Of a DNA stretch of 64,000 nucleotides, positions 1,159-33,597 are shown in pieces. The stretch's first letter is position 1. Each line of letters opens with the position of its first letter. The notes beneath the pieces were generated by a model, which worked only from the letters and a program-made list of their open reading frames with translations, did no database searches and was not told the origin of the DNA. Made by a program: the position numbers and the translations under genes. This DNA is from an uncultured Verrucomicrobiae bacterium (GTDB lineage Bacteria > Verrucomicrobiota > Verrucomicrobiia > Chthoniobacterales > JAATET01), in NCBI GenBank assembly GCA_963719495.1, contig CAVRCI010000003.1, positions 64,001 through 128,000 on the forward strand, in the 5' to 3' direction.

Positions 1159-1170
1159 TCTACGCGTAAA
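1159..1170. promoter_or_regulatory. Putative shared operator (TCTACGCGTAAA, reverse complement of TTTACGCGTAGA)
   Basis: Near-palindrome about 70 bp upstream of the symporter start. The identical 12-mer occurs at 19721 and 26721. Confidence 0.65.
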
Positions 1171-1241
1171 CCCACCGCCCCACGCTCCCCGCCTTTACGC
1201 GCCCCGCCCGCGCCTCCACGATACCGCCCCACCCCAGCACC

Positions 1242-3434
1242 ATGACCAGCCTCACCCTCCTCGGCCTCCCCCTGCTCGATATCATCGTGATCATCGCCTA
1301 CTTCGCGGTCGTCGTGTGGATCGGCTTCCGCGCCATGCGGCACGTCCACACCTCCGAGGATTACTTCCTGGCGGGCCGAAAATTCGGGAAGACGATCCAG
1401 ACCTTCGCCGCCTTCGGTCAGGGCACGAGCGCGGAGTCCGCCGTCGGCACCACCACGATGGTCAGCACCAACGGCGCCGCCGGCATCGGCTTCGGACTCG
1501 TGAGCGGCATCGTCGCCATGCCCGTCTTCTGGATGACCACGATGTGGTATCGCCGGCTGCGCTACCTGAGCCTCGCGGAGTTTTTCAACGAGCGCTACGG
1601 CTCGCGCGCGATGGCCGGATTCTACGCGCTCACGCAGACGTTCATGTTCATGATCATGGCCGCCGTCGGCTTCACGGCCATGAGCAAGACCATCGCCGCC
1701 ATCGCCGAGAAACCCGTCGCCGCCCTCTCCCAGGCCGAAACCGCCGAACGCGCCCTCGCGCTCGAATACCAAACCCTGCGCGACACCGATTACCGCCTGC
1801 TCTCCGCACCCGAACGCGAGCGTCTGGACGATCTCGCCGAGGCCGCCCCGGCGCGCAACTTTTCCTACGTCAACCGCACCTGGCTCACCGTCTGTCTCGC
1901 CGTCATCGTCCTGCTCTACGCCGTCACCGGCGGCCTCGAAGCCGCGTTCCTGACGGACATGATCCAGGGCATTTTCATCATCCTGCTCACCCTCATGCTC
2001 ATTCCCTTCGCGATGGCGAAGATCAACGTGATGTACGACGTCACCGGCGTCCTCGGGACGTTCCAGGCCTTCCACGCCAACCTGCCCGAGGCCTTTTTCA
2101 AGGTGCTCGGCTCGCCGAACGTGCCGCAGTTCACCTGGTATTTCATTTTCGCCTACGGCCTGCTCTTCGTCGCGAACACCGGCGTCCAAGCCAACCAACT
2201 CACCGCCGCCGGCTCGGCCAAGGACGACGAGACCGCGCGCTTCGGCTTCCTGAGCGGCATTTTCATCAAACGCTATTGCACGGTCATCTGGGGATTCATC
2301 GCGATGATGACGCTCCTCCTCTACGGCAACAAAGTCTCCGATCCCGACTACGTGTGGGGAATGGCCACCCGCGAACTCCTCCCGACCGGCCTCGTCGGTC
2401 TCATGATCGCCTGCCTCATGGCCGCGCTCATGTCCACGGCGGACGCGCTCATGCTGACCGTCTCCTCCCTGCTGACCAACAGCGTTTACCGCCCGCTCGT
2501 TCCGGGAAAAACCGAGAGCCACTACGTGCTCGCGGGCCGCATTTTCTGTCTCGCCTACATCGTCGGCGGCGTCGCCATCGCGTTCGCCCTCGACGACATT
2601 CTCACGCTCCTTCTCTTCATGATCGGGTTCAATTCCATCATCGCGGCCACCTTCTGGCTGGGCATGATCTGGCGTCGGGCCACGCGCACCGCCGCGTGGG
2701 TCTCCATCGGCATCACGTTTCTCTTCACACTCGCGCTCCCGATCCTGGTCCCGCTCATCCCCGGCGTCCGCTCGAATCCCGACCTCGCCCGCAAAACCGA
2801 AGGCTACGCCATCGAGCGCACCTACACCGCCAAGGCGCTCGACGTCACGCGCCGCGCCGAGGAGATCGCCGTCTGGGACGCGCTCGCCGCCCGCGGCGAA
2901 TCCGACGGCACGCGCCCCGCGCCACTCGTCGAGGGCGAGTCGTTCCAACGCAGCGACTACGTGGCACCGCAGAGCATCTTCTGGCAGACCGGCGTCACCC
3001 GCGACGACGCGGGCAACCCGGTGGGCGGGGGCCTGCTCAAGGTCGAACTCCTCGCCGCCCAGTGGCTCGGCTTCGACCTCACCCGCCACCGCCAATCGCT
3101 CAACGAAACCCTCGCCGCCCTCCTCCGCATCGCCATCCCCTTCGGCGTCATCCTCGTCGTTTCGCTCTTCACCACCCGCGAAGACACCCGCCGCCTCGAC
3201 TTCTTCTACGCCCGCCTGCGCACCCCCGCCTACGCCGACCACGCCGCCGACGACATCGAAGTCGAACGCGTCCGTGCCAATCCCGCGCTGCGCGACGACC
3301 TGAAGCTGTTCCCGGGATCGGACTGGGAATTCCGCAAATGGCACCGCGCCGACTGGATCGGTCAGGCCTGGGTCTGCGCCGGTGCCGCCGGTCTCTTCGT
3401 CCTGCTCTACCTCCTCGTCACGGTCGGAAGATGA
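1242..3434 (+). CDS. Sodium:solute symporter family transporter
   Basis: Multiple TM helices with SSS motifs EDYFLAGRKFG, EFFNERYG, GGLEAAFLTD and GLVGLMIACLMAALMST. Confidence 0.9.
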   Translation: MTSLTLLGLPLLDIIVIIAYFAVVVWIGFRAMRHVHTSEDYFLAGRKFGKTIQTFAAFGQGTSAESAVGTTTMVSTNGAAGIGFGLVSGIVAMPVFWMTTMWYRRLRYLSLAEFFNERYGSRAMAGFYALTQTFMFMIMAAVGFTAMSKTIAAIAEKPVAALSQAETAERALALEYQTLRDTDYRLLSAPERERLDDLAEAAPARNFSYVNRTWLTVCLAVIVLLYAVTGGLEAAFLTDMIQGIFIILLTLMLIPFAMAKINVMYDVTGVLGTFQAFHANLPEAFFKVLGSPNVPQFTWYFIFAYGLLFVANTGVQANQLTAAGSAKDDETARFGFLSGIFIKRYCTVIWGFIAMMTLLLYGNKVSDPDYVWGMATRELLPTGLVGLMIACLMAALMSTADALMLTVSSLLTNSVYRPLVPGKTESHYVLAGRIFCLAYIVGGVAIAFALDDILTLLLFMIGFNSIIAATFWLGMIWRRATRTAAWVSIGITFLFTLALPILVPLIPGVRSNPDLARKTEGYAIERTYTAKALDVTRRAEEIAVWDALAARGESDGTRPAPLVEGESFQRSDYVAPQSIFWQTGVTRDDAGNPVGGGLLKVELLAAQWLGFDLTRHRQSLNETLAALLRIAIPFGVILVVSLFTTREDTRRLDFFYARLRTPAYADHAADDIEVERVRANPALRDDLKLFPGSDWEFRKWHRADWIGQAWVCAGAAGLFVLLYLLVTVGR

Positions 3435-4774
3435 GATCCCAACGCAACCCCGTCCTCACGTCCGTCGTTCTCGCCTCTCTTCTGACCGCCCCCCTCGCCG
3501 TGAGCGCCCCGCCGCCCGAACCCCAATCCGATCCCGGCATCACCGACGAGTCGCTCGTTCCCGATTACACCCTCCCCGACCCGCTCGTCCTCGCCGACGG
3601 CACCCGCGTCCGCGACGCCGAATCGTGGCGCACGCAACGCCGCCCGGAGATTCTGCGCCTCTTCGAGACGCACGTTTACGGGCGCACGCCCACGCGCAAG
3701 TTGGACTCGACGGTCAGCGAGACCACGTCGCTCGACGAGCACACCCTCGGCGGCATCGCGACGCGCCGGGAAGTCACCGTGCGCTTCACCGACGAACCCG
3801 ACGGCCCCCGGATGAACCTCCTCATCTACACACCCAACGCCGCAGCCGGACCGGTGCCCGCCTTCCTCGGCCTCAATTTCGACGGTAACCAGACCACCCA
3901 GACCGATCCCGACATCGCCCTCCCGACCGCCTGGCTGCGCGATAATCCTGAGAAGGGAATCGTCGACCACCGGGCGACCGAGGCCTCCCGCGGCATCAAG
4001 ACCGAACGCTGGCCCGCCGAAGCGATCCTCCGTCGCGGCTACGCGCTCGTCACCATCTACTGCGGGGACTTCGACCCCGACCGCGACGATTTCTCCGACG
4101 GCGTCCACCCCCTCTTCTACGCCCCCGGCCAGACGCGCCCCGCGGCGGACGAATGGGGCACCCTCGGCGCGTGGGCCTGGGGCCTGAGCCGCGCCCTCGA
4201 TTACCTCGGGACCGACCCCGCCATCGACGCCACCCGCGTCGCCGTCGTCGGACACTCCCGCCTCGGCAAGGCCGCGCTCTGGGCGGGTGTCCAGGACGAA
4301 CGCTTCGCACTCGTCATCTCGAACGACTCCGGTTGCGGCGGAGCCGCCCTCAGCCGCCGCCGCTTCGGCGAGACGGTCGCCGTGATCAATCGCAAATTCC
4401 CCCACTGGTTCTGCGCCAATTTCAAAAACTACAACGACAACGAAGCCGCCCTCCCCGTCGATCAGCACCAACTCATTGCCCTCATCGCCCCCCGCCCCGC
4501 CTACGTCGCCAGCGCGGCCAACGATCTCTACGCCGACCCGACGGGCGAATTCCTCGCCGCCCGCCACGCCGATCCTGTCTATGCCCTTTTCGACCGAACC
4601 GGCGTCGGCGTCGACGCCCCCCCGCCCGTCGACCAACCCGTCGGCGACACCATCGGCTACCACCGCCGCACCGGTGACCACGACATCACCGGCACCGACT
4701 GGGACCACTTTCTCGATTTCGCCGACCGGCACCTCGCTCCGAAAATTCAAGTCAGACAGGATTTACAGGATTAA
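3431..4774 (+). CDS. CE15-like glucuronoyl/acetylxylan esterase with signal peptide
   Basis: The ATG overlaps the symporter stop. Motifs include YTLPDPL, WAWGLSRALDYL, the nucleophile motif GHSRLGK, SGCGG and LPVDQHQLIALIAPRP. Confidence 0.85.
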   Translation: MRSQRNPVLTSVVLASLLTAPLAVSAPPPEPQSDPGITDESLVPDYTLPDPLVLADGTRVRDAESWRTQRRPEILRLFETHVYGRTPTRKLDSTVSETTSLDEHTLGGIATRREVTVRFTDEPDGPRMNLLIYTPNAAAGPVPAFLGLNFDGNQTTQTDPDIALPTAWLRDNPEKGIVDHRATEASRGIKTERWPAEAILRRGYALVTIYCGDFDPDRDDFSDGVHPLFYAPGQTRPAADEWGTLGAWAWGLSRALDYLGTDPAIDATRVAVVGHSRLGKAALWAGVQDERFALVISNDSGCGGAALSRRRFGETVAVINRKFPHWFCANFKNYNDNEAALPVDQHQLIALIAPRPAYVASAANDLYADPTGEFLAARHADPVYALFDRTGVGVDAPPPVDQPVGDTIGYHRRTGDHDITGTDWDHFLDFADRHLAPKIQVRQDLQD

Positions 4775-4865: not shown

Positions 4866-6164
4866 ATGACAGACCTCGCCCAATCGCTCGCCGCCGCCGC
4901 GACCAATCCCGCCCAGACAACCGCCCTCCTCCAGGCCGCCATCGACGCCGCCGCCTCCACCGCCGGCGTCGTCACCGTCCCGCCGGGCCGTCACGTCATT
5001 CGCACCCTCTTCCTCCGCAACGGCGTCACGCTCGAACTCGCGCTCGGCGCCACCCTGCTCCCCGACACCGACCTCGACGCCTATCCGGTTCTCCAAGCCG
5101 GACACAACCAGGACCGCCAACCTTTCCACCTCCTCGTCGCCGACGGCATCGAGGACTTCGTCATTCGCGGCCCCGGCACCATCGACGGCTGCGGAATGAG
5201 TTTTTGGGATGAACCTCTCCCCGGCAGCCCATGGTATCGCGCCAAAACCCGCCGGATCAGCCCGCTCGTCGAAATCCGCAACTGCCGCAACGTCCGCCTC
5301 GAGAATTTCGCCATCCGCGACAGCCCCGGCTGGACCGTCCACTGCCTCGACTGCGACCACGTGCGCATCGAGGGCCTCGTCATCGACAACCACCTCTATG
5401 GCCCCAACACCGACGGCCTCGACATCAACGGCTGCCGCCACGTCTTTATCTCGAACTGCCGCATCCACGGCTGCGACGACAACATCATCCTCAAAGCCAC
5501 CGCCGACGCGCGCTCCTGCGAGCACATCGTCGTCACCAACTGCATCCTCGAATCGACCTGCGCCGCCCTCGGCCTCGGCGCCGAGACCCGGTCCTCCATC
5601 CGCCACGTCGCCATCAGCAACTGCACCGTCCTCAACAGCATCCGCATGATCCAGATCATCATGTGGGACGGCGGCACCGTCGAAAACGTCGTTATCTCCA
5701 ACGTCACCGGACGAGCCATGACCACCATCGGCACCGACCGCGCCATCCACCTCGACATCCAGCAGCACCACGGCGAAAACCCCGAACTTGGGACGATGCG
5801 CAACGTCCAGATCAGCAACGTCGTCTGCGAGACCCGCGGCCGCATCCTCCTCACCGCCCAGGACGGCGCGTTTCTCGAAAACATCACCCTCCGCGACGTC
5901 CGCCTCATCTATCCCGAAGTCGAAGACCCCACCCGCACCGTCGCCGCCAGCACCAGTCAGCAACTATCGAACTTCTCCCCCGAAGCCCGCCTCGCCCGCG
6001 CCGCCGTCGTCGCCGACAACGTGAAAAACCTCGTCCTCGCCCACGTCGCCGCCACCTGGCCGCAGGATCGCTCCAAAATCGAGACCCCCATGCGCGGCCT
6101 CTGGACCCGCAACGTCCCCGGCGCCATCATCGACTGCCCCCACCTCGCCCCCAGCGACGGGTAG
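4866..6164 (+). CDS. GH28-like right-handed beta-helix glycoside hydrolase
   Basis: Motifs LQAAIDAA, G-TIDG-G, SPGWTVH, PNTDGLDINGC and DDNIILK (GH28 NTDG and DD motifs). Confidence 0.85.
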   Translation: MTDLAQSLAAAATNPAQTTALLQAAIDAAASTAGVVTVPPGRHVIRTLFLRNGVTLELALGATLLPDTDLDAYPVLQAGHNQDRQPFHLLVADGIEDFVIRGPGTIDGCGMSFWDEPLPGSPWYRAKTRRISPLVEIRNCRNVRLENFAIRDSPGWTVHCLDCDHVRIEGLVIDNHLYGPNTDGLDINGCRHVFISNCRIHGCDDNIILKATADARSCEHIVVTNCILESTCAALGLGAETRSSIRHVAISNCTVLNSIRMIQIIMWDGGTVENVVISNVTGRAMTTIGTDRAIHLDIQQHHGENPELGTMRNVQISNVVCETRGRILLTAQDGAFLENITLRDVRLIYPEVEDPTRTVAASTSQQLSNFSPEARLARAAVVADNVKNLVLAHVAATWPQDRSKIETPMRGLWTRNVPGAIIDCPHLAPSDG

Positions 6165-7045: not shown

Positions 7046-7187
7046 CTACGGACGAAAGCTCCGCGTCGTGCCGTTGAGCGGATCGACCTGGAGGGCGGCG
7101 AAGTTGGGCGGCAATGGCTCTGTCGAACGCTCGGCGGCGAGCGTGACGTGCCAGCTCTGACCCAGATCAAGATCGGTCGAGCCAGTC
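7046..7187 (-). pseudogene. Orphan 3' end of a second Verru_Chthon cassette protein D gene
   Basis: Translates as TGSTDLDLGQSWHVTLAAERSTEPLPPNFAALQVDPLNGTTRSFRP*, paralleling the C-terminus of the intact D (…FLTLVPE…LPPNFAVVAIEPINARPTVFRP*). Confidence 0.8.
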
Positions 7188-7812
7188 AGGGACGAAACAC
7201 CGTCGGGCGGGCGTTGATTGGCTCGATCGCCACCACTGCGAAATTCGGCGGCAACCCGGTAACGACCCCGTCCGTTCGCGGATCGGCTTCGGGCACCAAC
7301 GTGAGAAATGCCCTGTTCGACGGTGCAACCAGGCTGCCCGCCGGAGTGAAGAGCACCTCGGAATACTTCACCGATCCGCGGGGCTTGGCTTCGGTGAGGT
7401 TGTTGTAGATGTCCAGCAAGGCGGAAAATTTTGCATCGCTCTTCACGGCCACGCCCGTCGGCAGGCGACGCTCGGGATTCACGGGTTTCCAGGAGGCGGC
7501 TACCGTCGGGTCGGAACTGCTGCTCGGCTTGTCCCAAATCTGGTAACTGCTGAAAATTTCACCGCCGGTCTCATCGCGGTAGAAACGGATCGCGACTTGC
7601 CGGTTGAAGGTGCTCGCCCGTTGGTGCGCGAGGCTGACCGCGGCGGAAATTTCCTCCGAAGCCCCCGTCATGTTGATTCCCTCGGAAAGCCCGCGAATCG
7701 CGGGCACCAAGAGCGTCATCAGAATGGCGATGATCACCATCACCACCAGAAGCTCGATCAGCGAGAAGGCCGAGCGCCTGGGATTGCCCATCGGAGAAAG
7801 GAAGCCACTCAT
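7186..7812 (-). CDS. Verru_Chthon cassette protein D (prepilin-type, GspH/FimT-like)
   Basis: Class III signal AFSLIELLVVMVII, then NRQVAIRF and a C-terminal PPNF…FRP. Confidence 0.85.
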   Translation of the reverse strand: MSGFLSPMGNPRRSAFSLIELLVVMVIIAILMTLLVPAIRGLSEGINMTGASEEISAAVSLAHQRASTFNRQVAIRFYRDETGGEIFSSYQIWDKPSSSSDPTVAASWKPVNPERRLPTGVAVKSDAKFSALLDIYNNLTEAKPRGSVKYSEVLFTPAGSLVAPSNRAFLTLVPEADPRTDGVVTGLPPNFAVVAIEPINARPTVFRP

Positions 7813-7817
7813 GTTGT

Positions 7818-10800
7818 TCAGGGCGCGAATTGCACGGTTGAGAGAACGCGCCAGCGATACCAGCGGTCGATTGGAACGTAATCGCCACTGAGATTCACCT
7901 GAGTGTAATCGGGAATGTCCGGCGCGTTGGTGTCGAGAAACCGCTCGATCGTCGTCGCGCCCCGGTATTCTCCGACCACCGCGTCGCGCGCCTCATCCCA
8001 CTCGTTCCAGCCGCCCGACCCGGTCCCAGTCTGACGCAATGCCTGCACGCGGTAATGGACCGTGTAGGTGTTCGACTTCGTCGTCACCCGCGAAAGCAAC
8101 GCCAGGTAAGGCTGTTCCCTCAAGGTGTCGGAGGTGAGACGACGGGTGCCCCACCACGTCCCGAGATTGGCACCCGTCTGCCCCTCCGGCACGATCGACG
8201 CCGCGCTGACCTGAGTAGCACTCCGGAAAATATCGCCAGCCGCGAAGACCTTTTCAAATTCCTTCACCGTCTCATCGCGGTCGATCGGGTAGCGAATGCG
8301 GTCCGAAATTGGACCGATGTACTGACTGTATTTGTAAGACTTACCACCCGTCGCCAGTCGATCCTCGACCGCCGAAAGCATGAGCGGCTTCAGAGCCCCG
8401 CGGAGAGCCGTCGAGCGCTCGATGTGCACGAAGGGCATCATCTGAAAATTCAAATTGACCTTGCCCGCGGTGGACAGCGGATCGCTGATCGGAAATGGCT
8501 CGACCACCGGCATCCAATAGTTATCCAAATACAGGTGGTCTGGAGGCGACCCGAAGCCCGGATGCGCCGATCCGCCGGCTGGCCGTGGATTGAAGAGCAG
8601 CGTTTGCCACGGTTGCAGATCGCCGGAGGAATTTGCCGTAACGAGAGCACCCAGTTCTCCAGCCGACGGAACCGATCGGTTGGGTTCAAAACTGTCCCCC
8701 GCCCCCACCCGGCCAAGATACTTGTCCCCAAAATAACCACCGAAATTTTTGTTGGTATCGCCGGAATCCGACCTGGGGAAAAACGCCCCATCGACATTCG
8801 CACCGATCCCACTTTGCCAGTCGCCCAAGGTGCTGCCGTCGCTCATCCGCGCGCCGCCAGTGAAACCAGCAGGAATGACTGGGGCAGAGTATTCGTTGAA
8901 GGAAATTCCAGGCACGAGGGTCGAGGTCGCCCCAATCACATCGATATTGGTCAAGCGCTTCACTCCATTTCCATCGGCCTTCCACCCATACTGATTCGGA
9001 TTGATATATTGGCTGATGGACGAGCTCCGCATCGAGTGGGCAAACCGCCCCGTCACCGCAGCAGCGGCAGGACTACTGCCCGTGCCTGAGTAAGGATTCG
9101 ACGCCGTGCCGTAGCCGGAAACGGAAGCAAATGTCGACGCCGTGGGACTGATGGCAAGAAGGCGAAAGTCCCCGCGGGTGGAACCATCCGTGGGTGCCCA
9201 CTCGACGGCACAGACGACATCTCCGGGTCGAATGACAAGTTGGGAATTCGAGTCGCCGTTCGTATTACCGACGAGTCGATTGCGCACATCGAGCAAATCT
9301 CCGTCCTGGATACTCGACTGATCGATCGGCTGCTGACGCGGATGCGAGATCGGCGTCACCTTTCCTCCGCTGAACCGGGTGCCTGTCGATACGTGCTGAG
9401 GCATCACGAACGACGCGTCGGGAAACGAAACGCTGAGTCGCTGATACTCGTTGGCGTTCTTCCAGGATTTGAGAATTACCGTGAGATTGCCACCCGTGAA
9501 ATTGACCGTCGGCCCCGTCACGGGAATCGATGGTGACACAAACGGGTAATCGGTATCCTTGTCCCCACCGCCGCTCTTGGCTTCCTTGAGATTGCTGAAG
9601 CTCGAGGACACGTGAGGCTGCATGTTGCCGGTTCGTGGTGCGGCGTAATTCGCAAAAATTTGAAAACTGCCGACGGAGTCCGACGTTCCGGTGGCGCGGT
9701 TGCCCTGCCAATTGTAGCTGCCGTAGCGCATCGCTGTGGAAGTCGATGTCACGAAGGCAGTCCCGTTGAGACGCAACGAGTTCAGCCCCTGTATCTCGAT
9801 TTCTCCGCCGGGGACGACACTGGGCGTTCCCTGTGCCGCAAGGTAGGGTTGGAAAATGAGGAATGCGCGCGCCTCGAGGGTAACTTGGCTAACGGCATTC
9901 CCTAGATTTGGATAGCTTGTGGCCGACGAAGTTGGCCAAATTCGGGAGCCACTGCTGTTAAAAACCTCCGGCGATTTTCCATCACTCACCTCGTAACGTC
10001 CATCTGCATAGTTGTTGCGCACCTTACTGGCCATGAAAACGATCCCGATCTGACTGATCGTGACATTACGGCCCATCCCCATGGCACTGTTGCTGACTTT
10101 GGCGGGGATCACGTAGTTGCGCGGTCCGGCAGACTTGTCGTCAATGATCCCATTGTTTCCCGGACGGATTTCCACCTGGGGATCAGCGGTGGTGACAGAG
10201 TAGCGATAAGTCACCCGATCGCTCGAACTGCCAAAGCTCAAGTAATCGCTGTTCGTATTGGCACGGACCGTGTCGAAGACTTGAGCCAGCACCTTGTCGG
10301 CACCCCCGGCACCCCATTTATCGAAAAAGCTCCTGCCGTAACCGGGGATTTGCGTTCCGGAGAGCGAGCGGACGTAATTGAAGAGCTGTTGGTTCCGTGA
10401 GAGGTCCACATCGGCAGTGGGCGAATCCGCAGGTTGATCGGCCACGTAAAGTCCGCCGCTGGCGATTCCCCGCTGGAAGGAATAGGAAAAATTCCCGATT
10501 CGAGAGCAGAAATCAATCAGCCGATCCTTCACCGTGCGATCGGTCGTCGCGGTTTGTTGCGGCCAGAGCGAGACTCTCGGGGTCCCGAAAAGCGTCGTTT
10601 CGGGAGCCCGGTTTTGCGCCGTCAAAAAGAAGGACCGCTGCGAAAGAAATTGTGCATTCAGGTCCAGATTCGGTGTTCGGTCGGGCTTGAAGAGTAATTC
10701 GTCCGAAGTCGCGTAGAGGCGGTCACTGTCGGGAATCAAAGGCGAACCCTTCCGAAATTCGCTCTGGTCGCTGGCGGGCCACACCTGAGTGTTCGTCTCC

Positions 10801-13540: not shown

Positions 13541-13607
13541 TGGGGGGACGCCGTCAATATACGCACACTCTCCCCGACCCGTGAGGCGAAACGCTCCAAT
13601 CCGATTT

Positions 13608-13619
13608 TTTACACGTAAA
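13608..13619. promoter_or_regulatory. Putative shared operator variant TTTACACGTAAA (weaker copy TTTACGGTTAAA at 13671-13682)
   Basis: Lies in the divergent promoter region between the cassette and the Gfo gene and resembles the 12-mer at 1159, 19721 and 26721. Confidence 0.55.
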
Positions 13620-23000: not shown

Positions 23001-23745
23001 TCCGCCAGCACAGGAGGTAGTGCTGTCCCGCCCGCAGTTGCGAGGCATCGTTCACCTCGACCGTGAAGCTTCCGCGCGTCGGGGTATTCGTCACGTCGGC
23101 CAGGCGGGGACCGCTCCAGGCCGTGCTGCCCGACCACCACGCCGACCAGTCGCCGCCATAATCGGTGCCGCCGAAGGTCTCGATGACTTTGCGATTCACG
23201 GTGTCGAGCTGCTCCGGTGGTGAGACCCAAAGCATCCCGCCCTGCCACGACCAACGCGATCCGCCCGAACCCGTCAGGTCGGGAGCGATCGCAGCGGCCA
23301 GTGAACGGTCGAATCGGAGCGTGGTCGTTTCCAATCCCGCCCCCCGCAGCACCACGCCCGACCGCGACAGGTGGACCACGCCGCGCGCGAGAACGACGCC
23401 CGGCGGCAGCAGCACCGCGCCGCCGCCCATGCGCCAGGCCGCGTCGATCGCCGCCCGCAGCGCCCCGGTGTTGTCGGTGGTGCCATCGGCCACCACCCCG
23501 TAGTCCGCCGCACGCACGACGACCGGCACATCCGGGATCGGCACGTCGCCGCGACGATAGCCCGCGTAGGAATTATTCGGAATGTTCGGGTGCGAATTCG
23601 GCGACGCCGCGTAGGCGCTCCAGACATCCTCCGCGGTCTGCGAATGGGCCGCGCCTGCCCCGAATCCCAGGATCAGGACCAATGCCAACGCGGGCTGCAG
23701 AAGTCTTACCGGAACTGCGCTGCGAGTGATGGAGATCGTTGTCAC
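20002..23745 (-). CDS. Secreted multidomain protein: pectate-lyase-like beta-helix, Ig-like, carbohydrate-binding-like and PKD domains, and a verrucomicrobial C-terminal domain
   Basis: Signal peptide, then PNNSYAGY…DYGVVADGTTDNTGALRAAID…SGVVLRGAG. PKD motif WNFGDGS…HTFAQAGTY. C-terminal YEAW…ADLDSD…EYFQGSNP…WSDDLVNW…FVRLKITR. Confidence 0.75.
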   Translation of the reverse strand: MTTISITRSAVPVRLLQPALALVLILGFGAGAAHSQTAEDVWSAYAASPNSHPNIPNNSYAGYRRGDVPIPDVPVVVRAADYGVVADGTTDNTGALRAAIDAAWRMGGGAVLLPPGVVLARGVVHLSRSGVVLRGAGLETTTLRFDRSLAAAIAPDLTGSGGSRWSWQGGMLWVSPPEQLDTVNRKVIETFGGTDYGGDWSAWWSGSTAWSGPRLADVTNTPTRGSFTVEVNDASQLRAGQHYLLCWRNKGAADSYALWKHLAGHSLMGNFNWGGAGALNDRAQWQWPVEIRAIAGNTITLAQPLRADVRAGFEVGFEPTGPVVEEIGIEDLTIEMVGAPLTKPHNTYDGWNAVFFTKTINCWVRRVRIANAENGVLSRSNKGLALSGIEFTGTVRMHHAQTFVRGTDCLLEDFLLDAPVHHGISVEDLSSGIVCRHGVMNHGTFDSHRFMPFDIVRTDISLFNDGGPGGANDFGPFVGKNVVHWNVEITGGGQLANGGLYVNQPDAHSLGALVGVRGAPTDTSDAWAMVPGEKGNIIADPGAEPGIPDLYAAQLQFRHTGSAAVDLVSPNGGYAMPGAVTLEAAGFVSAGRSIASVTFQLDGTPQPAVTVAPYRLTWAGAPGGVHEVRVKMVDDLGAETWSAPRRLVLRHQLVLQENHPNVLYTGSWSTLTDASHFGRDLRETSGGGSAEVDFHGTRAVVYGFSNNNAQNIAIYLDDMGTPQQTIHVQSGSPLHQSRIWDSGELPDGPHHLRISGVSGSNRARLDFLEITSTGPAPTPLDPTARVIVSPPGGPAPLTAIFDATPSRDADGIPILHSWNFGDGSVGAGAVTNHTFAQAGTYQMQLTVTDSDLRLRILARQVHVGPASAAPHTFVSWGNTGGLVTTHRNLRDADPAAQLVDLDGDGTADDSVAQHTFSTSSPLNPTTGYSGMPFYGGWRVETLNPPTRKFDRARVENSSSGNDSLKISLVANGAGQSGRLIGLLYFDKADFLAGGATQRVKFTGSSILRMSGVTLTSAGEVRWLVREGTQFFVSQDLITPSSGTATLAFHTDGTDGYWAPYDPATSLDFDQQSAIFLPRDFADVTAVGLMAGSDARTSSRPVVQFSGFEATGLASTSPYEAWLSAHFSPAILADPAKEATHWGESADLDSDRQTTLSEYFQGSNPSVADGNDTTELERNGTNLQFRYLRLKTAVDVSGAVKWSDDLVNWSSAGVTEQQIADLGDTVRMEATIPSDGAPRRFVRLKITR

Positions 23746-26550: not shown

Positions 26551-26720
26551 CGGATGGAGGGAGGAAGCCAATTCAACGGCTGGCGCGGACAAGGGCCTTC
26601 CGTATCGTCGGTCAACGCCGCAAAGCGCCGACGAAAAGAGGAGTTTTGGAGGGGAGACACCAAGGCACCCAGAATATCCGATCAACCTCGAAACGCCAAC
26701 CCGCACCGGGTGGACGAGAT

Positions 26721-26732
26721 TTTACGCGTAGA
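26721..26732. promoter_or_regulatory. Putative shared operator TTTACGCGTAGA (variant TTTACGCATATA at 26795-26806)
   Basis: Lies in the divergent promoter region between the DUF5060 gene and the TPR-ExbBD operon. Confidence 0.65.
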
Positions 26733-26890
26733 GCCAAACGGTCTTCGTGCGAAAGGCGGAGCCCGCTGCGATCGACCGGTGCATCGAGATGATGTTTACG
26801 CATATAACATCCTCTCGATAGCAGGTGCTCGTCTTCCCAAGGTAGGATCGGAGTTTCCGCATCCGTCCCTCCCAACTCCCCTCTTCGATA

Positions 26891-29779
26891 ATGCCACGCC
26901 CCCCCGACGGCACCGTGCTCGAGTCAGATTTACATTCCCGCGACCGGGGACGCGGCCCGGTATCCACGCTCGTTCGGGTGGCCGTGATCGCCGCCGCGAT
27001 AGCGACGGTGAGCACCGGACGAATGGAAGCGCAGCCGAGTCCGGCGGACGGATTGGATGCCGGGTGGGCCAGCTACCAGAGCGGAAAGTTTCCGGAAGCG
27101 GCTGCGAGTCTGGAAAAATTCACCGCCGAGCAGAGCGGCAATGCGGCGTATCTCGGCGTGTTCAAGCGCGTCACCTACCTCCTGGCGTTGTGTTACGTGA
27201 AGACGGAGGACTGGGCGAAGGTCCACGACGCCGTCGAGCGCTTCGCGAAGGCCACCGGGGAGGGTCAGCCAGGATGGGAGGACGAGTTGACATTCTGGAA
27301 TGGCGTGGCGCTCGTGAAGACCGGCGAGCCCGCCGCCGGGCGCGAGGCGTTGCTGGCTTTCTTGAAGTCGAATCGGGACCCGGCCAAGCGGTTCCCCGCC
27401 ATTCTGCTCGTCGGATCGGCCTACACCGCGGAAGGAAAGTCAGCCGAAGCCGCCGCCTTTTACGCGCAAGCCGGAGCCTCGCTGCCGACCATGGATGCCG
27501 CCCGGCTCCGAATGCTCGAGTTGGACTCCTACGTTGCCGCCGACGATCTGCCCGGCGCGATCGCCGCGGCGGATCGCGGCTTCGCGGTGCTCGACGAGAT
27601 GCCGCAAGTCGTCGCGTTTCAACTCCTCGCGCTGCAATTGGCCGAGAAACTGATCGAGGCCGATCGGGTCCGCGAAGCCATCGCGATCCTGCTGCGGATC
27701 GGATCACGCGAGGAATTGCTGGCTCTCCAGCAGCAGCGCATCGATCAACTCGCACCGCGGATCTCCGCCTCGACCGCCGGTGACCCCGGCCTCGCCGCGC
27801 TTTCCAAGCTCTCGGAGAGCGTGAAATCCGACGCCGCGAGGCTCGCGGACGTCCCGGATTTCGACTCGATGGTGCGCTTCCGCCTGGCCTCCGCTTTCCT
27901 TCGTCTGAAACGCTACAACGAGCTGACATTCATCTTGAGCGGGATGCTCGCCGACCTTCCGGCCGACGCGATCAACGAGCAGGCGTCCGACACGCTCGTC
28001 CGCTCCTACATGCAGGTCGGACGATGGCCGCGGGTCGTCGAGACGGCCCGTGCCTTCCGCGAAAAGTTCCCCAACTCGGCATCGCTCCCGGGCGTCATGC
28101 TGCTCGAAGCCCAGGGGCTGCAGGAACAAGGGAAGCTCGACGAGGCCGAGAAGGCGTTCGGTGAATTGGTCGAAAAATTCCCCCAGGACGATCTCACCCC
28201 GGAGGCCACATTTCTGCGGGCATTCAACGACATGCTGCGCGAGGAATTCGAATCCGCCATCGCGCAGTTCCAAGCCATCGCCCAGGACGAATCCGACACC
28301 GCGACCGCGGAGAAGGCGATGTTCTGGACCGCCGAAGCCGAATCGATGCGCAAGGCACCGGACGCCACGATCACCGCCGCCGACGCCTATCTGGAGAAGT
28401 ATCCGCGGGGCGAATACGCACCGGACGCTCTCTATCGGAAGGCATTCGCCCTCCACGCGCTGCGCGACTACGAGGCCAGCGTCCCGCTACTCGAGACCTT
28501 CCTGAAGCAAAATCCCGGCCACACCTACGCCGGCGAGGCGCTCCTCCTGAAAGCCGACGCCGCGCTGGCCCAGGGCGATACCAAGGCCGGGCTCGCCCTG
28601 CTGGCGTCGGTCGCACCGGGTCCGTATTACGAAGAGGCGCAATTCCGCACCGCCAAGGTCCATCGGCTCGCCGAGGACCACGACGCGCTGCGCGAGCACC
28701 TCGAGAAGTTCGTCTCGAACAATCCAGCCAGCGCCCGCCTGGCCGAAGCGGTCTATTGGATCGCGTGGAGCTGGCGCGACGACCCGGCGAAGCAAAACGC
28801 AGCTTACTGGACGGCCATCGACCGTTTCGGCAACGATCCCGCCCAATGGGGCGTTCAGGAAATCCTCCAAGGCCTCATCAAGGCCAACGGAGGCGAGGAA
28901 GCGAAGCAGGAGCTGGCGGAGAAATTCCGCCAGGAAAGTCGAAAGGCCGAACTCGCCAAAAAGCGCTCGCTCGATCTTCAGCTCCGCTGGGCCCAGGCGG
29001 AATTGATTCGCAAATCGGACCCCGGCGCCGCCCGCCAGCTTCTCGTGGACTCCGCGCCATTCCTCGATCCGGCCCGCGACAATCCGCAGATTCTCGTCGC
29101 CGTCGCCGACGCCCTCCGTGCCGCCGGGAAGCGACCCGAGGCCAGCGCGCTCTACGCCGACATCCGGCGATGGAACCCCACCTCGACGGCCAACGACCGC
29201 GTCTTCGCTGCGCTGGGCGGGATGTCCGCCGAGGACGGGGACTACGCGAAAGCGCTCGAATATTTCGACCGCTTCGACCGCGAGATCCCGTCCTCCGCGC
29301 TGCGAGCCGAGATCGGGCTTGCCTCCGCCAACGCCCTCGTCGAACTCGAGCGCTACGACGAGGCGATCCAGAAAATCGAGACGCTGCTCGATACGAAGTC
29401 CGCCCCGAAACGCCTCAAGGCCTCGGCGCTCGTCGCCCTCGGTCGGATCGAGATCACCCGCGGCGAACCCCGCCGCGCGGTCGCCCCGCTGCAACGGGTT
29501 TACGTCCTCTATGGCGCCTACCCGGAACTCGCCGCGGAGGCCTACGTCGAAACCGCCAAGTCGCTCGAGAAACTGGACGACCCACTCGGCGCTGCCCGCA
29601 CTTACCTCGAGTTTCTCGAGACCGGCCGGCTGGATACGCCCGCGACGAAAGCCTTCGTCGCCGAAGCTCGAAAAAATTTGGCCGACATCCCCGCAGCGAC
29701 GCGGACCGAGGCCGAGGCGCAGAACCGTGCCGCGGCCGAAGCCGTCGCCACGGCCAGCGTGGGGGGGGCGGGGTCATGA
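26891..29779 (+). CDS. Large exported tetratricopeptide-repeat protein
   Basis: N-terminal hydrophobic segment and many TPR-like units (…EKFPNS, EKFPQD, EKYPRGEYAPDALY). C-terminal LQRVYVLY…AAEAY. The exact start is uncertain. Confidence 0.8.
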   Translation: MPRPPDGTVLESDLHSRDRGRGPVSTLVRVAVIAAAIATVSTGRMEAQPSPADGLDAGWASYQSGKFPEAAASLEKFTAEQSGNAAYLGVFKRVTYLLALCYVKTEDWAKVHDAVERFAKATGEGQPGWEDELTFWNGVALVKTGEPAAGREALLAFLKSNRDPAKRFPAILLVGSAYTAEGKSAEAAAFYAQAGASLPTMDAARLRMLELDSYVAADDLPGAIAAADRGFAVLDEMPQVVAFQLLALQLAEKLIEADRVREAIAILLRIGSREELLALQQQRIDQLAPRISASTAGDPGLAALSKLSESVKSDAARLADVPDFDSMVRFRLASAFLRLKRYNELTFILSGMLADLPADAINEQASDTLVRSYMQVGRWPRVVETARAFREKFPNSASLPGVMLLEAQGLQEQGKLDEAEKAFGELVEKFPQDDLTPEATFLRAFNDMLREEFESAIAQFQAIAQDESDTATAEKAMFWTAEAESMRKAPDATITAADAYLEKYPRGEYAPDALYRKAFALHALRDYEASVPLLETFLKQNPGHTYAGEALLLKADAALAQGDTKAGLALLASVAPGPYYEEAQFRTAKVHRLAEDHDALREHLEKFVSNNPASARLAEAVYWIAWSWRDDPAKQNAAYWTAIDRFGNDPAQWGVQEILQGLIKANGGEEAKQELAEKFRQESRKAELAKKRSLDLQLRWAQAELIRKSDPGAARQLLVDSAPFLDPARDNPQILVAVADALRAAGKRPEASALYADIRRWNPTSTANDRVFAALGGMSAEDGDYAKALEYFDRFDREIPSSALRAEIGLASANALVELERYDEAIQKIETLLDTKSAPKRLKASALVALGRIEITRGEPRRAVAPLQRVYVLYGAYPELAAEAYVETAKSLEKLDDPLGAARTYLEFLETGRLDTPATKAFVAEARKNLADIPAATRTEAEAQNRAAAEAVATASVGGAGS

Positions 29780-30702
29780 GCGCGTTCATCCACCGCTTCC
29801 CGATCCGCCGGACGGCTTCGATCTGCCTGGCGATCTTCGGACTCGCCGCGCAACCGCTCCGGGCGGACGTGACTGGCGACGTGATCCAGCTCGCATCCGG
29901 GAAGGAAGTGCAGGCGCGCGTGAGCGGTCTCGACGGCGAAGCTCTCACCCTCATCCGCAAGACCCAATACGGAGTCGTCACCGAGCGGCTTCCGTTGGAT
30001 CAGGTGCGAGCCGTCAAGTTCGCCGACGAGGAACGCCTCGCCGCCGACCTTCCGAAGCTGACCGACCGCGCGCGACTCGAGCAGCTCTGGAATGCCCGCA
30101 AACCCTTCCTGCCCATTCCGGAATCGATGGCCGGAGCCGTCGGTCTGCGCTTCGCACGGGTGCTCCTCGATTCCACCAAACCCGCCGACGCCCAGCTCGC
30201 GGAAGGCGTTCTGGATGACGTCGAGGAGAAGGACTGGAGCAAACCCCGCCGCGCCGACGCCTCGGGCCTGCGCTTCGAGGCTCTCCTGAAATCCGGGGAC
30301 GAAGCGACCGCGCTCGCCCGGGCCGAGGAGGCTCTCGCGCGCAAGGACCAGCCCCGCATGCGGTCCGACGCGAGCTACTTTCTCGCCAATCGGGCGATCA
30401 ACGAGTTCCTCGAGCTGCTCGCCGAGAACCCGCGGTGGAGTCAGGACCCCTTCGTCCGGCCGGAGCGCGACCGCCTGTATTACACCGCGATCGACCTGCT
30501 TCTCATCCCGTATCTCGAGGACGGCTCCTCCCCGGAGACGGCGTCCCGGAGCGTCTGGCGGCTCTCCGAATTCTACGCCGAAGCGGGCGAAACCGAGGCC
30601 GCCCGCTCGAGCGCACAGGACGTCGTGACCATTTTTAGCTCCACCCCCGAGGCGAAACTCGCCGAGAAATATCTGACCACATCCGAAAAAACCGAACCAT
30701 GA
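29776..30702 (+). CDS. Exported hypothetical protein (N-terminal beta domain plus helical repeats)
   Basis: ATGA overlaps at both ends. Signal peptide followed by DVIQLASGKEVQARV. Confidence 0.7.
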   Translation: MSAFIHRFPIRRTASICLAIFGLAAQPLRADVTGDVIQLASGKEVQARVSGLDGEALTLIRKTQYGVVTERLPLDQVRAVKFADEERLAADLPKLTDRARLEQLWNARKPFLPIPESMAGAVGLRFARVLLDSTKPADAQLAEGVLDDVEEKDWSKPRRADASGLRFEALLKSGDEATALARAEEALARKDQPRMRSDASYFLANRAINEFLELLAENPRWSQDPFVRPERDRLYYTAIDLLLIPYLEDGSSPETASRSVWRLSEFYAEAGETEAARSSAQDVVTIFSSTPEAKLAEKYLTTSEKTEP

Positions 30703-31532
30703 ACGCCCACCTCTCTCCCCTCCGCCCCCCCCTCCGAGCCCTGCTCTACGCGAGTCTGCTGACAATCGCGATCTCCGCGTCGTCGCACGCGCAGGAGCCC
30801 GCCGCCACGCCTCCCCCCCCGCCCGCCGTCGCCGAGAAGTCGCTGCTCGACCTCTACGCCCAGGGTGGCTTGCTCATGCATTTCATCCTCGTCTGCTCGA
30901 TGGGGACGATCACCGTCGGCATCTACTGCGCCCTGCAGATCAATCGACGGAAAATGCAACCAGCCGCGCACATCGGCGCCCTCACGCAGTTCATGCAGTC
31001 ACGCGACGTCGGAGGAGCCTACGAATTCTGCCAGCAGCACCCGAATGCCTACACGAACACCGTTTCCGCCGCGCTTCTCAAGGTGAATTTCGAGCGGGAA
31101 CTGGCCAACAAATTTTCCATGGAGCAGGCCGCCGCCGAGTCGCTCGCCGAGGTCGAGACCCGGAGCATGGTCTGGGTGAACTACCTGAACGTGTTTGCCA
31201 CCCTCGCGCCGATGCTCGGGTTGCTGGGGACGGTGACGGGCATGATCCAAAGTTTCGACCAGCTCGCAGCCGGACGCAGCGAGCCGGCGGACCTCGCGGG
31301 GGGCATCGGGCAGGCCATGCTCACGACCGCGGGCGGTCTCATCGTCGGTATCCCGGCCATGTTCCTGTATTTCTTCTTCCGGAACCAATTGCTCATCGTC
31401 GTGACCGAGATTCAGAAATCCGTGACCTTCCTGATCGATATTCTCAGCGGGGAATTGAAGCTCGAGGGAGCGGTCGACCCCGCGGCGACGACCGAGCCGC
31501 CGCCGGAGCAGCAGCCCTCGGAGGAAGCCTGA
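30699..31532 (+). CDS. exbB: MotA/TolQ/ExbB proton channel protein
   Basis: Motifs LAPMLGLLGTVTGMIQSF and GIGQAMLTTAGGLIVGIPA. Confidence 0.92.
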   Translation: MNAHLSPLRPPLRALLYASLLTIAISASSHAQEPAATPPPPPAVAEKSLLDLYAQGGLLMHFILVCSMGTITVGIYCALQINRRKMQPAAHIGALTQFMQSRDVGGAYEFCQQHPNAYTNTVSAALLKVNFERELANKFSMEQAAAESLAEVETRSMVWVNYLNVFATLAPMLGLLGTVTGMIQSFDQLAAGRSEPADLAGGIGQAMLTTAGGLIVGIPAMFLYFFFRNQLLIVVTEIQKSVTFLIDILSGELKLEGAVDPAATTEPPPEQQPSEEA

Positions 31533-31560
31533 TCACCGTGCATCCCGCCGCCGCCCCCCG

Positions 31561-31971
31561 ATGAAAATCGAACGTCGTTCCAGCGGAAAGCCGGGCTTCA
31601 TGCTCGCGCCCATGATCGACATGACCTTTCTGCTGCTCATCTTCTTCATGGTCACCACGAAGATCAGCAAGGATAAGGTCAATCTCGAGATCGCCCTGCC
31701 TACCGCGGCCAACGCCGTGCGACCCGATGACCTCACGAACCGCGACATCATCAACATCGACAGCGCGGGGAACTATTTCATCTCCAACGACCCGATGACC
31801 AAGGAGTCGCTGCGAGCCTACCTCGTGAAACGATTTGAAAACTACCCACCGCTCCGTCTCTACGTCCGCGCGGACCGCAATACGCCCAGCAAACAAATCA
31901 AGGAACTGATGCGCCTCGCCGCCGAAGCTGGAGCCATCGACGTCATCTTCGGCAGCTACGAGAAGGAATGA
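31561..31971 (+). CDS. exbD: ExbD/TolR family protein
   Basis: Motifs APMIDMTFLLLIFFMV and VRADR. Confidence 0.92.
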   Translation: MKIERRSSGKPGFMLAPMIDMTFLLLIFFMVTTKISKDKVNLEIALPTAANAVRPDDLTNRDIINIDSAGNYFISNDPMTKESLRAYLVKRFENYPPLRLYVRADRNTPSKQIKELMRLAAEAGAIDVIFGSYEKE

Positions 31972-31972
31972 A

Positions 31973-32419
31973 ATGAAGGTCCGTCGTCGCGAAGAAGAGG
32001 AAGTCGAGATCCCGATGGGACCGATGATCGACATGGTCTTTTTGCTGCTGGTGTTCTTCATGGTCACCGCCAAACCGATCAAGCAGGAGAGCGACATCGC
32101 GCTGTCGCTGCCGGGCACCGCGTCGCAGGACGCCGCCGTCGAGCTGCCCGACGAGCAGGAACTCGTCATCGACGAGCAGGGCGCGGTCTATCTCAACGAA
32201 ATGCGCCTCGCCGAGCCCGCCGACCAGGAGATGCCGAAGCTTTTCGCCACCCTCCTCCGCTTCCGCGAGGCAGCCCGGGCCAACCAATCGAAGGCTCTCG
32301 TGACCATCGCCGCCGACGACAAGTCCATCCACCAACGCATCGTCGATGTTCTCAACGTCGCCGCCCGGGCGGGTGTCACCGGCATCACGTTTGCCGATTC
32401 CGGAGAAGAGGAGCCATGA
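31973..32419 (+). CDS. exbD: ExbD/TolR family protein (second copy)
   Basis: Motifs PMIDMVFLLLVFFMV and IAAD…IVDVLN. Confidence 0.92.
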   Translation: MKVRRREEEEVEIPMGPMIDMVFLLLVFFMVTAKPIKQESDIALSLPGTASQDAAVELPDEQELVIDEQGAVYLNEMRLAEPADQEMPKLFATLLRFREAARANQSKALVTIAADDKSIHQRIVDVLNVAARAGVTGITFADSGEEEP

Positions 32420-33597
32420 CGAAAACGAATGATCCGGCTTCCGCTCGCGACCGCGCCGGGCAGCGTCGAAAGCGACTCATCATCGGCATAGTCCTCGCGA
32501 CGATTGCCGTGCACCTCCTGTTTGGAGGGGTCGCCGCCATCTGGGTGATCGCCCGCTATTTCGAGAAGCCGAAAGCGCAGTTCACGGTCGAAAAAATCGT
32601 TCGCATCGAGCCCGAGCCACGAGACCACCAGATCAGCATGCAGGAGCTCGAGTCCCTGCGCCAGCGCCCCGTCGTCAACAATCGCATCCTCAGCCTCCGT
32701 CCGACGGAATTGTCGCTCCCCGACCTGCCCAAGCTCGTCCTCGACCAATCGGTCCCGCTCGACACCGCCGCGCTCGTGAACGCCCAGATCGACTCCGTCT
32801 CGTCCTCCGCTTCGGGTCAGGGCTCGTCCGCCGGTGGCGGCTTCTTCGGCTCGGCGGTCAAGCAAGCCGGAGCCTTCGAAGGCTATTTCTACGATCTCAA
32901 ATCCCTGGCCAACGGCTCGCCCAGCGAAGTCGAGGAGGAGAAAAATCAAAACAAAGCCTACCTCGAAGTGCTCGCCGACTTCGTGAAATCGAATTGGAGT
33001 TCGAGCAAGTTGGACCGGTATTTCAAAGCCGAGCAACCGCTCTACTCGGTGGCGTTTCTCATGCCGAAGATGGACGCCGCCGAGGCTCCGGAAGCCTTCT
33101 CCGTCGACCGTCCGCCCCGGCGTTGGGCGGCCCTCTACCGGGGTAGCGCGGCGTTTCCCACCTCGGGTCGCTACCGATTCGTCGGGACGGCCGACGACGT
33201 TCTCGTCGTCCGCGCGAAGGGCGAGCTCGTCCTCAACGGGTCCTACCCGAGCTGCCGCCGGGTGGCCGATGACGACTTGACCGTCGAGACCAAGGACGGA
33301 AAAGGCGTGAAATTTTACTTCGGTCCCTGGATCGACGTCTCGGCGGGCGAGGCGGTCCCGATCGAAATTCTTCTCGGAGAGCAACCGGGCGGCGTCTTCT
33401 ATTGTTTTCTCGGGCTCGAAAAGGAAGGCGAAGAATACGCCCAGAGCGGAAACAATCTGCCGCTCATTCCGGCCTTCCAGATCGCCCCGCTGCCCGATGA
33501 CTGGACGCAGGCGCTCGAACCGGATCGCCCGCCGCTCGTGGAGATCAACAAGATCATCCTCGAGCCCAAGAAGGCCTTCTCGCCCTTCGGACGTTGA
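32416..33597 (+). CDS. Membrane-anchored protein with a TonB/TolA-like N-terminal TM (His), a linker and a PA14-like C-terminal domain
   Basis: A single TM, IIGIVLATIAVHLLFGG. Later SGRYRFVGTADDVLVVRAKGELVLNG resembles the PA14 DD motif. Translationally coupled to exbD. Confidence 0.6.
   Translation: MTKTNDPASARDRAGQRRKRLIIGIVLATIAVHLLFGGVAAIWVIARYFEKPKAQFTVEKIVRIEPEPRDHQISMQELESLRQRPVVNNRILSLRPTELSLPDLPKLVLDQSVPLDTAALVNAQIDSVSSSASGQGSSAGGGFFGSAVKQAGAFEGYFYDLKSLANGSPSEVEEEKNQNKAYLEVLADFVKSNWSSSKLDRYFKAEQPLYSVAFLMPKMDAAEAPEAFSVDRPPRRWAALYRGSAAFPTSGRYRFVGTADDVLVVRAKGELVLNGSYPSCRRVADDDLTVETKDGKGVKFYFGPWIDVSAGEAVPIEILLGEQPGGVFYCFLGLEKEGEEYAQSGNNLPLIPAFQIAPLPDDWTQALEPDRPPLVEINKIILEPKKAFSPFGR

Follow-up and report, generated by a model that had tools for sequence, protein, structure and literature searches.

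Here, we characterized a 64,000-nucleotide stretch of verrucomicrobial DNA (the window; G000:C3:64001-128000, where G000 is the 4.54-Mb, 98.6% complete source genome and C3 one of its contigs), in which a Verru_Chthon cassette of four pilin-like genes and a TPR-hyp-ExbB-ExbD-ExbD motor operon lie among genes for polysaccharide degradation. Judging from its sequence, this is a co-regulated glycan locus with a motor that is related to MUL1, a mucin-transport locus discussed below, and is tipped by a PA14-like domain. With about even confidence, we interpret the window as the right half of an inducible polysaccharide-utilization regulon in which motor and cassette would form one mechanism for one substrate. 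The locus bears on how polysaccharides enter the periplasm in Verrucomicrobiota and Planctomycetota, groups with few or no SusC/D pairs. It also ties two families of unknown function, the Verru_Chthon cassette and the TPR-ExbB-ExbD-ExbD-transducer operon of the Planctomycetes-Verrucomicrobia-Chlamydiae (PVC) group, to a defined glycan regulon whose operator and regulator can be identified.

The regulon was recognized by a palindromic operator with the consensus TTTACGCGTARA. A first-pass annotation, made by a model from the letters of the window, had reported a single 12-mer in four promoter regions. Three of them (1159, 19721 and 26721) carry the exact 12-mer TTTACGCGTAGA, whose only other copy in the genome lies 29 kb upstream, and the fourth (13608) turned out to be a variant, TTTACACGTAAA. 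The corresponding sites are AATCTACGCGTAAACC at 1157..1172, 85 bp upstream of a sodium:solute symporter gene; TTTTTACACGTAAAGC at 13606..13621, between the divergent promoters of the cassette and a Gfo dehydrogenase gene, with a weaker site at 13669 in the same intergenic region; a site at 19719..19734, upstream of a gene for a 1093-aa protein; and a pair at 26719..26808 (26719 strong, 26793 weaker) between the divergent starts of the DUF5060 and TPR genes. A matrix derived from the four window sites (threshold at least 17 bits) was searched against the whole 4.54 Mb and returned 17 sites: the four seeds, six in C3:28-64 kb, five in C2:670-705 kb and two elsewhere, with 15 of the 17 in intergenic regions. 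Since six sites were present in the upstream 36 kb and only about 0.1 per 36 kb would be expected by chance, their clustering exceeds chance. A genome-wide promoter element was rejected, and so was a signal for all cassettes; the other cassette and motor loci of G000 lack a comparable site between genes, as their best scores were 7-17 bits and the one of 16.6 bits is inside a gene.

Among 30 relatives, a cluster of exact sites was found in one, the congener and sister species G392. In that genome the two G000 clusters form one contiguous island of ~85 kb, with 13 sites of at least 14 bits at matching promoters within the 100 kb analysed: the place of the 1157 site is occupied, the 19719 site is kept and the variant is kept at L130:16367. 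Its LacI gene is 98.5% identical to that of G000 and the shared cassette 74-81%; the upstream motor operon is there too, but the beta-helix, DUF5060 and motor genes of the window are missing. The PEP-CTERM genes of the island diverge fastest from those of G000 (35-44% identity vs mostly 70-99% for the rest). Both the clustering of the 17 sites and the conservation of sites at G392 promoters bear out the earlier proposal of co-regulation by one operator. The G392 island (L128) is inserted where G000:C13:28-37 kb carries a different locus with PEP-CTERM, cassette, LacI and GH43 genes, and this position is likely a hotspot for glycan islands.

The regulon spans C3:29-98 kb and C2:671-700 kb, and the glycan locus extends ~35 kb upstream beyond the window. 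The operator precedes nearly every transcription unit, including the LacI gene on C2 (C2:678440), which has a site 31 bp before it and which we infer to be the repressor of the regulon. Enzymes encoded in it include two GH28, two GH29, GH42, a GH10-like enzyme, CE15, DUF2264 and four paralogous beta-helix enzymes; the other members are a sodium:solute symporter, ABC permeases, a XylR-like regulator, PEP-CTERM-like genes, one Verru_Chthon cassette and two motor operons. No sulfatase was found among the regulon proteins scanned. Based on this gene content, we consider an unsulfated heteropolysaccharide containing uronic acids, fucose and galactose the most likely substrate; this agrees with the uronic acids of the initial reading and probably adds fucose and galactose to them.

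The motor operon lies on the plus strand and comprises a large exported TPR protein in a Mul1A-like slot (26891..29779; Pfam), hyp, with a small N-terminal beta-domain and TPR-like helices (29776..30702; structure model and profile comparison), ExbB/TolQ of the lineage that contains MUL1 (30699..31532; Pfam and tree), two ExbD/TolR proteins (31561..31971 and 31973..32419) and gene 32416 (32416..33597), a candidate force transducer with one membrane helix bearing a conserved His33, a Pro/Gly-rich linker and a PA14-like head. The first five had been correctly located at first pass, and Pfam supports ExbB and both ExbDs. G000 has 10 ExbB genes and four copies of TPR-hyp-ExbB-ExbD-ExbD, each with a sixth gene X (32416 in the window). 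In the 80 best loci with the window type of ExbD in GTDB genomes, the gene order of the operon was kept, and X had a vWA head in 67 of the 69 loci where it was called, as it did in two G000 paralogues. X of the window and of the C2 copy has the same N-terminal helix with His33 but a PA14-like head (ESM Atlas 0.95 for the C-terminal half of 32416; PF07691 on homologues). His33 is invariant in 24 sequences and at least 90% conserved in 53, and 32416 has one hydrophobic segment. The single His-bearing membrane helix, the disordered linker and the motor synteny are those of a TonB/TolA-like transducer. TonB itself, as suggested earlier for this gene, was rejected: the protein matches neither the TonB family nor its C-terminal domain, and its C-terminal half is PA14-like. 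Its membrane helix resembles that of TonB.

A complex of the two ExbD periplasmic domains with residues 46-125 of 32416 was predicted with a score of 0.55 (best control 0.00). The support is weak: the mark was attained by 116 of 157 solved and by 2 of 215 mismatched pairs, with 18 solved pairs and both mismatches at or below 0.60; contact agreement was at least 62% and partner pLDDT at least 43, and the model may echo solved TonB-ExbD complexes. The AlphaFold model of hyp (pLDDT 83) matched only generic TPR proteins in PDB, none at E <=0.001. PDB sequence searches with hyp and 32416 were uninformative, a single-sequence model of the 32416 head had low confidence (pLDDT 41) and a metagenome scan with 32416 gave no match.

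Other copies of the motor were noted in G000. A second locus (L008/L148; C2:590-616 kb) reads X(PA14)-TPR-hyp-ExbB-ExbD-ExbD-GntR/LacI-cassette D-B-C-A, all encoded on a single strand; GH28-like, GH31 and alginate-lyase genes run divergently from it, and it has no copy of the window operator. The left edge of the regulon is occupied by a vWA-type paralogue (L001:4834-11239; G000:C3:28830-35238), which is under the window operator and is the sole motor of the G392 island. In the C11 motor operon, an array of REP-like (repetitive extragenic palindromic) repeats of ~220 bases each separates the two ExbD genes (L015:9920-10800).

MUL1 is said to have been described originally by Davey in 2023. The passages on it in two later sources present MUL1 as a Sus-like locus mediating mucin transport, with mul1A/mul1B corresponding to amuc_0544/0543 (PMC13174399; 10.1101/2025.02.20.639370), and Amuc_0539 is given as GH2 in a passage of a third (PMC11790493). 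In the Akkermansia genome G295 we found ExbB-ExbD-ExbD-orf-TPR(1077)-347 aa, with proteins named after Akkermansia muciniphila and a GH2 gene five genes after TPR; because of its gene order, these names and the GH2 position matching Amuc_0539, we took this locus as MUL1. In a quick IQ-TREE analysis of 45 ExbBs (midpoint root, several long branches, 4 of 20 MUL1-like loci with ExbB and most of the 80 motor loci omitted), the window family (16), a second subfamily, counted together with two similar sequences (8), and MUL1 (12) were separated from 9 others with SH-aLRT 99, and MUL1 was sister to the window family at 87. The N-terminal beta-domain of hyp alone matched the Mul1B family with 83% probability (hhalign, E 8e-6), compared with no more than 3.7% in 20 column shuffles or 0.3% with other profiles; the family alignment was needed, as the hyp profile reached only 7% against a single Mul1B sequence. 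It is probable on these profile comparisons that hyp is a remote Mul1B homologue.

The window operon and MUL1 share a large TPR protein, a small beta-domain/TPR protein, ExbB, two ExbDs, the ExbB lineage and the lack of a receptor gene. They differ in order (TPR-hyp-ExbB-ExbD-ExbD-X vs ExbB-ExbD-ExbD-TPR-Mul1B) and in subfamily, and the window system has in addition a sixth, transducer gene, four paralogous copies and substrate regulons with a pilin cassette. As far as these sequences tell, the motor operon is a paralogous relative of MUL1 and not its orthologue, since it has a TPR protein, a remote Mul1B-like protein, ExbB and two ExbDs, and neither the same order nor a Mul1B profile match in G000. 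No Verru_Chthon match was obtained in any of 30 genomes of genus g9, which suggests that MUL1 can work without the cassette.

The window operon also resembles a published family. In the passages on PVC operons with TPR, tolQ-like, two heterologous tolR-like and vWA transducer genes, their function 'remains unknown' and gliding is suggested (Williams-Jones et al. 2025, PMC12204202). The synteny TPR-tolQ-tolR-tolR, the His-bearing helix, the linker and a globular head are shared with the operons described there, whereas the window and C2 copies have a PA14-like instead of a vWA head; vWA is present in the C3:28830 paralogue. Those passages draw no link to glycan regulons or MUL1, and 'PA14' does not occur in the main text of the paper. 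PA14 heads also characterize a second six-gene subfamily, which was observed in six genomes; at three of these loci (L155/156, L159 and L160) it lies within or next to glycan genes. A full-length X-PA14 gene is found as a lone gene in many genomes, among them 29 of the 30 genomes of genus g9. One such lone TonB-like PA14 gene in G295 (L151:9436-10752 = G295:C1:1495429-1496646) is a candidate transducer for MUL1, whose operon has none.

The Verru_Chthon cassette, placed at 7.2-13.5 kb by the first-pass annotation, was verified there by four adjacent genes on the minus strand matching TIGR02596, TIGR02598, TIGR02599 and TIGR02600. They encode D, a GspH/FimU-like minor pilin (7186..7812; TIGR02596 over cut-off, weak GspH match), A, of 1370 aa (7818..11930; TIGR02600 over cut-off, PilX/GspK-type N-terminus), C, in a presumed PilW/GspJ-like slot (11931..13043; TIGR02599 over cut-off, N-methyl motif), and B, in a presumed PilV/GspI-like slot (13040..13540), which was just below the TIGR02598 cut-off of NCBIfam (49.6 vs 51.4 bits) when scored with an over-long N-terminus. 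All four have a class III signal and a hydrophobic N-terminal helix, seen as N-methyl matches in B, C and D and by inspection in A, whose PilX_N match was only E=0.73 and whose PilX/GspK-type start was likewise recognized by inspection. Protein A is conserved at its ends and variable in the middle. Besides eight Verru_Chthon cassettes and ~50 prepilin-type motifs, G000 has 4-5 secretins, 10 PilB/PilT/GspE-family ATPases and clusters similar to the type II secretion system (T2SS). A literature search for 'Verru_Chthon' or 'Chthon cassette' gave no match.

Several further observations concern cassettes elsewhere. At L004:8357-11993 (G000:C14:66-70 kb), cassette A is split across several open frames by frameshifts or assembly errors. 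An unannotated secreted protein of 220-260 aa follows cassette A at L008:6712-7392, L009:8322-9080, L006:12597-13388 and L163:16316-17059, and is possibly a fifth cassette gene. At L108:16264-17892, the PA14-like domain of X recurs in a FecR-like anti-sigma protein, whose gene lies next to a cassette and to genes for an extracytoplasmic function sigma factor and a PATR protein.

To our first-pass view that the window holds no TonB-dependent receptor, the genome adds that barrel and plug families of such receptors were both undetected anywhere in G000 and both detected in three control genomes; a cognate receptor just outside the window was thereby rejected. At least one receptor is present in 40 of 61 genomes of the order, so the absence is not an order-wide trait. 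Two congeners have a single receptor beside its own ExbB, and that receptor had no tblastn match in G000. No SusD Pfam match was obtained for the window or the upstream proteins scanned, the genome as a whole not having been searched with SusD models. Bacteroidota polysaccharide-utilization loci (PULs) share with this locus co-regulated enzymes, transporters and a regulator for one glycan, as judged here from sequence, and ExbBD as energy source. Unlike them, G000 lacks a SusC-type receptor and the motor is encoded inside the locus.

To see how cassettes and motors are placed in other genomes, we sampled 20 cassette loci in 15 other genomes (top TIGR02600 matches on long contigs) and 13 arbitrary 20-kb regions in 12 of the same genomes, reading manually the Pfam tables of flank proteins of at least 150 aa. 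Glycan genes, i.e., glycoside hydrolases, lyases, carbohydrate esterases, sulfatases, carbohydrate-binding modules or beta-helix proteins, were present at 17/20 cassette loci (35/173 flank proteins) vs 5/13 controls (11/184), with Fisher p values of 0.009 and 6e-5 for samples that include non-independent kin. Tails similar to PEP-CTERM were found at 13/20 of these loci vs 0/13 controls, and PATR-repeat proteins lay beside 5/20. In G000, a glycan enzyme is encoded near seven of the eight cassettes, and near the eighth only sugar-catabolic genes are found. The distances between its four motors and a cassette are 1.5, 13.5, 32.5 and 35.9 kb (permutation p values of 0.025 and 2.5e-4, with thresholds chosen afterwards). 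Three of the four operons belong to glycan loci, and the PA14 type accounts for the two copies closest to a cassette (13.5 and 1.5 kb). In another genome, X-PA14 directly precedes cassette A (L163). The suggested co-localisation of both modules with carbohydrate-active enzymes (CAZymes) across genomes was therefore upheld for cassettes, which are enriched beside glycan enzymes, and failed for the typical vWA motor operon, which is at background.

We propose that ExbB and the two different ExbDs would form a proton-driven motor, on which 32416 would dock through its His-bearing helix, as TonB does, with its PA14-like, probably sugar-binding head reaching into the periplasm. The TPR and hyp proteins may serve as a scaffold like Mul1A/Mul1B, and motor, 32416 and scaffold would either pull glycan fragments through the outer membrane or pass them on to enzymes of the periplasm. 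A route through the outer membrane, probably by one of the secretins of the genome, is proposed because no receptor was detected. The four cassette proteins would be a set of minor pilins for a pilus tip, assembled by pilus machinery whose genes lie elsewhere and used for capture of, or attachment to, the same substrate. Between the two modules, the PA14-like head of 32416 would be a better glycan-binding candidate than protein A. A single cassette-plus-motor import machine is a plausible hypothesis.

A number of observations weigh against this interpretation. Glycan-related proteins made up only 8 of 125 flank proteins of vWA-type motors (14 of the 80 loci, at a stricter E-value), with no locus having two, which equals background, and elsewhere this operon is mostly found among housekeeping genes. 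Cassette A lies within 10 kb of a motor in 4/80 loci, all in one syntenic context (after tyrA-aroA), and a motor of this kind was found in 0/20 foreign cassette loci. At the genome level, the window-type ExbD is missing from 13 of the 25 genomes that have a full-score cassette, and such a cassette from 23 of the 35 that have this ExbD; since few candidates were scored per genome in the class- and phylum-level searches, misses there do not equal absences. Given these counts, cassette and motor as a universally linked or conserved unit was rejected. G392 keeps the regulon without the PA14-type operon of the window, and three of the six PA14 operons of the second subfamily (L152, L153 and L161) have no glycan enzyme among the flank proteins scanned. 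As for the kinship with MUL1, the full-length comparison of hyp with the Mul1B family (95.8% over 269 columns) was barely above a large generic TPR control (92.8%), the N-domain of the second family (five sequences) gave only 2% against Mul1B, i.e., no match, and a Mul1B profile search found no clear orthologue in G000.

Three other explanations were considered. The cassette might encode substrate-specific T2SS minor pseudopilins (H/I/J/K-like) that, with or without the motor, bring large enzymes and PEP-CTERM proteins to the surface. The PEP-CTERM-like tails and PATR-repeat proteins at foreign cassettes, the weak GspH match of D, and the PEP-CTERM genes that are under the same operator and diverge fastest in the island all fit such export or display, but it leaves a PA14 head on an inner-membrane transducer unexplained, the genome already has general T2SS-like clusters, and MUL1 is reported as an uptake locus in the relevant passages of PMC13174399; we regard it as rather unlikely. 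The motor might instead be a general device for envelope function, adhesion or motility, copies of which were recruited to glycan islands for particle attachment and do not transport glycans. This is unlikely in our judgment. It would fit the gliding suggested for the vWA type in the passages cited above (PMC12204202), the vWA head in nearly all loci, the housekeeping contexts (LuxE/LuxC, tyrA-aroA-cmk and nuo) with background CAZyme density in most genomes, and the C11 copy of G000, which keeps such a context and has no operator. It does not readily account for the operator directly upstream of two motor copies, one of them kept in G392, the PA14 head, the MUL1 kinship, or the PA14 operons that unrelated genomes carry within glycan loci (L155/156, L159 and L160).

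A chance assembly of cassette, motor and enzymes in a mosaic island appears very improbable. Although insertion sequence (IS) elements and repeats are nearby, gene content differs in G392 and the distance thresholds of the permutation test were set after seeing the data, operator sites occupy orthologous promoters in two species, cassettes are enriched beside CAZymes across genomes, and C2 has a second, independent locus with motor, cassette and CAZymes.

The joint use of motor and cassette for one glycan could be part of a wider, receptor-free and modular glycan import in Verrucomicrobiota, in which a MUL1-family motor with swappable heads (vWA, PA14), swappable Verru_Chthon tips and a shared secretin occurs as substrate-specific copies in PUL-like regulons and takes the SusC/SusD role. 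We consider this generalization doubtful; if true, the transducer that MUL1 lacks should be encoded by the lone PA14 gene of Akkermansia (G295:C1:1495429-1496646). The replacement of SusCD by a pilus and a proton motive force-driven system, as put forward at first pass, gains from the receptor-free genome and an ExbB of the MUL1 lineage, but is not new in kind: a pilus and ExbBD/TPR in place of SusCD are anticipated by MUL1/MUL2, and the PVC TPR-TolQ-TolR-TolR-vWA operon is already in print. MUL2, a type IV-like pilus locus of Akkermansiaceae (PMC13174399), likewise has pilin-like genes proposed for glycan attachment in Verrucomicrobiota. It consists of one conserved PilM/pilin/secretin locus with no carbohydrate-binding genes close by (PMC13174399), whereas the Verru_Chthon cassette is a variable set of minor pilins that occurs in multiple copies and lacks assembly genes. 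Compared with the Verru_Chthon families as defined, with which it shares all four genes, the present case places one cassette under the operator of a glycan regulon and shows statistical enrichment of cassettes beside glycan enzymes and PEP-CTERM genes. The PA14 head, the coupling at regulon level and the cassette-CAZyme association were not found in the literature searched; published A. muciniphila transposon sequencing and co-immunoprecipitation tables may cover the PA14 gene, the cassettes or the MUL1 distribution. Two uncharacterized families thereby gain a testable role in polysaccharide use, and with the operon linked to MUL1 the PA14 head becomes a specific glycan-binding candidate.

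With regard to the distribution of MUL1, a Mul1B-like protein was observed in 111/121 genomes of family f9 (17/18 genera), some of the matches being the six-gene subfamily. ExbB-ExbD-ExbD-TPR-Mul1B was complete in 17/20 wider loci (L176-L225; strong matches on long contigs) and in 15/18 of those outside g9, and a genus with member proteins named Luteolibacter was included. A 2026 paper reported that aquatic Akkermansiaceae lack both MUL1 synteny and Mul1B homologues and that MUL1 is gut-specific (PMC13174399). The wide MUL1 synteny in non-Akkermansia Akkermansiaceae indicates, from genomes compared without habitat records, a conflict with this claim. MUL1 beyond the gut would bear on marine and freshwater polysaccharide uptake.

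The remaining genes were mostly as first annotated, with Pfam placing the symporter, CE15, GH28-like, beta-helix, DUF5060 and Gfo genes where they had been called. On the plus strand, an FAD-dependent oxidoreductase (1..1094), which starts upstream at C3:63520 and has its own operator site (C3:63474), is followed by the sodium:solute symporter (SSS/SSF; 1242..3434; PF00474), a CE15 glucuronoyl-esterase-like protein (GCE; 3431..4774; PF22244) and a GH28-like enzyme (4866..6164; PF00295). Beyond the cassette lie a Gfo/Idh/MocA dehydrogenase (13808..15043, plus strand; Pfam) and, on the minus strand, a second GH28-like enzyme (15092..16336; Pfam/NCBIfam scans), the secreted 1093-aa protein (16378..19659), a beta-helix enzyme with Ig/PKD domains (20002..23745), whose three paralogues are all within the same regulon, and the DUF5060 protein (23758..26550; Pfam). 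The 1093-aa protein is a possible lyase; the earlier Hepar_II_III-like call comes down to a sub-threshold Hepar_II_III_C match in Pfam (E=0.013), and no relative was found by a PDB sequence search. Two further Gfo dehydrogenases follow the motor (33594..35866, plus strand; Pfam), which makes three in the locus, and an ISAs1 transposase gene (35867-37045) abuts the second of them and marks the end of the locus. Between the ends of the GH28 and cassette D genes, two copies of a REP-like palindromic repeat of ~250 bases, with the core CCCGATAAAATG...CATTTTAT, were observed at window:6440-6880. A large repetitive secreted protein with a Pro-Thr-rich linker near its C-terminus, split in two open reading frames, is encoded on the minus strand at window:45098-50833.

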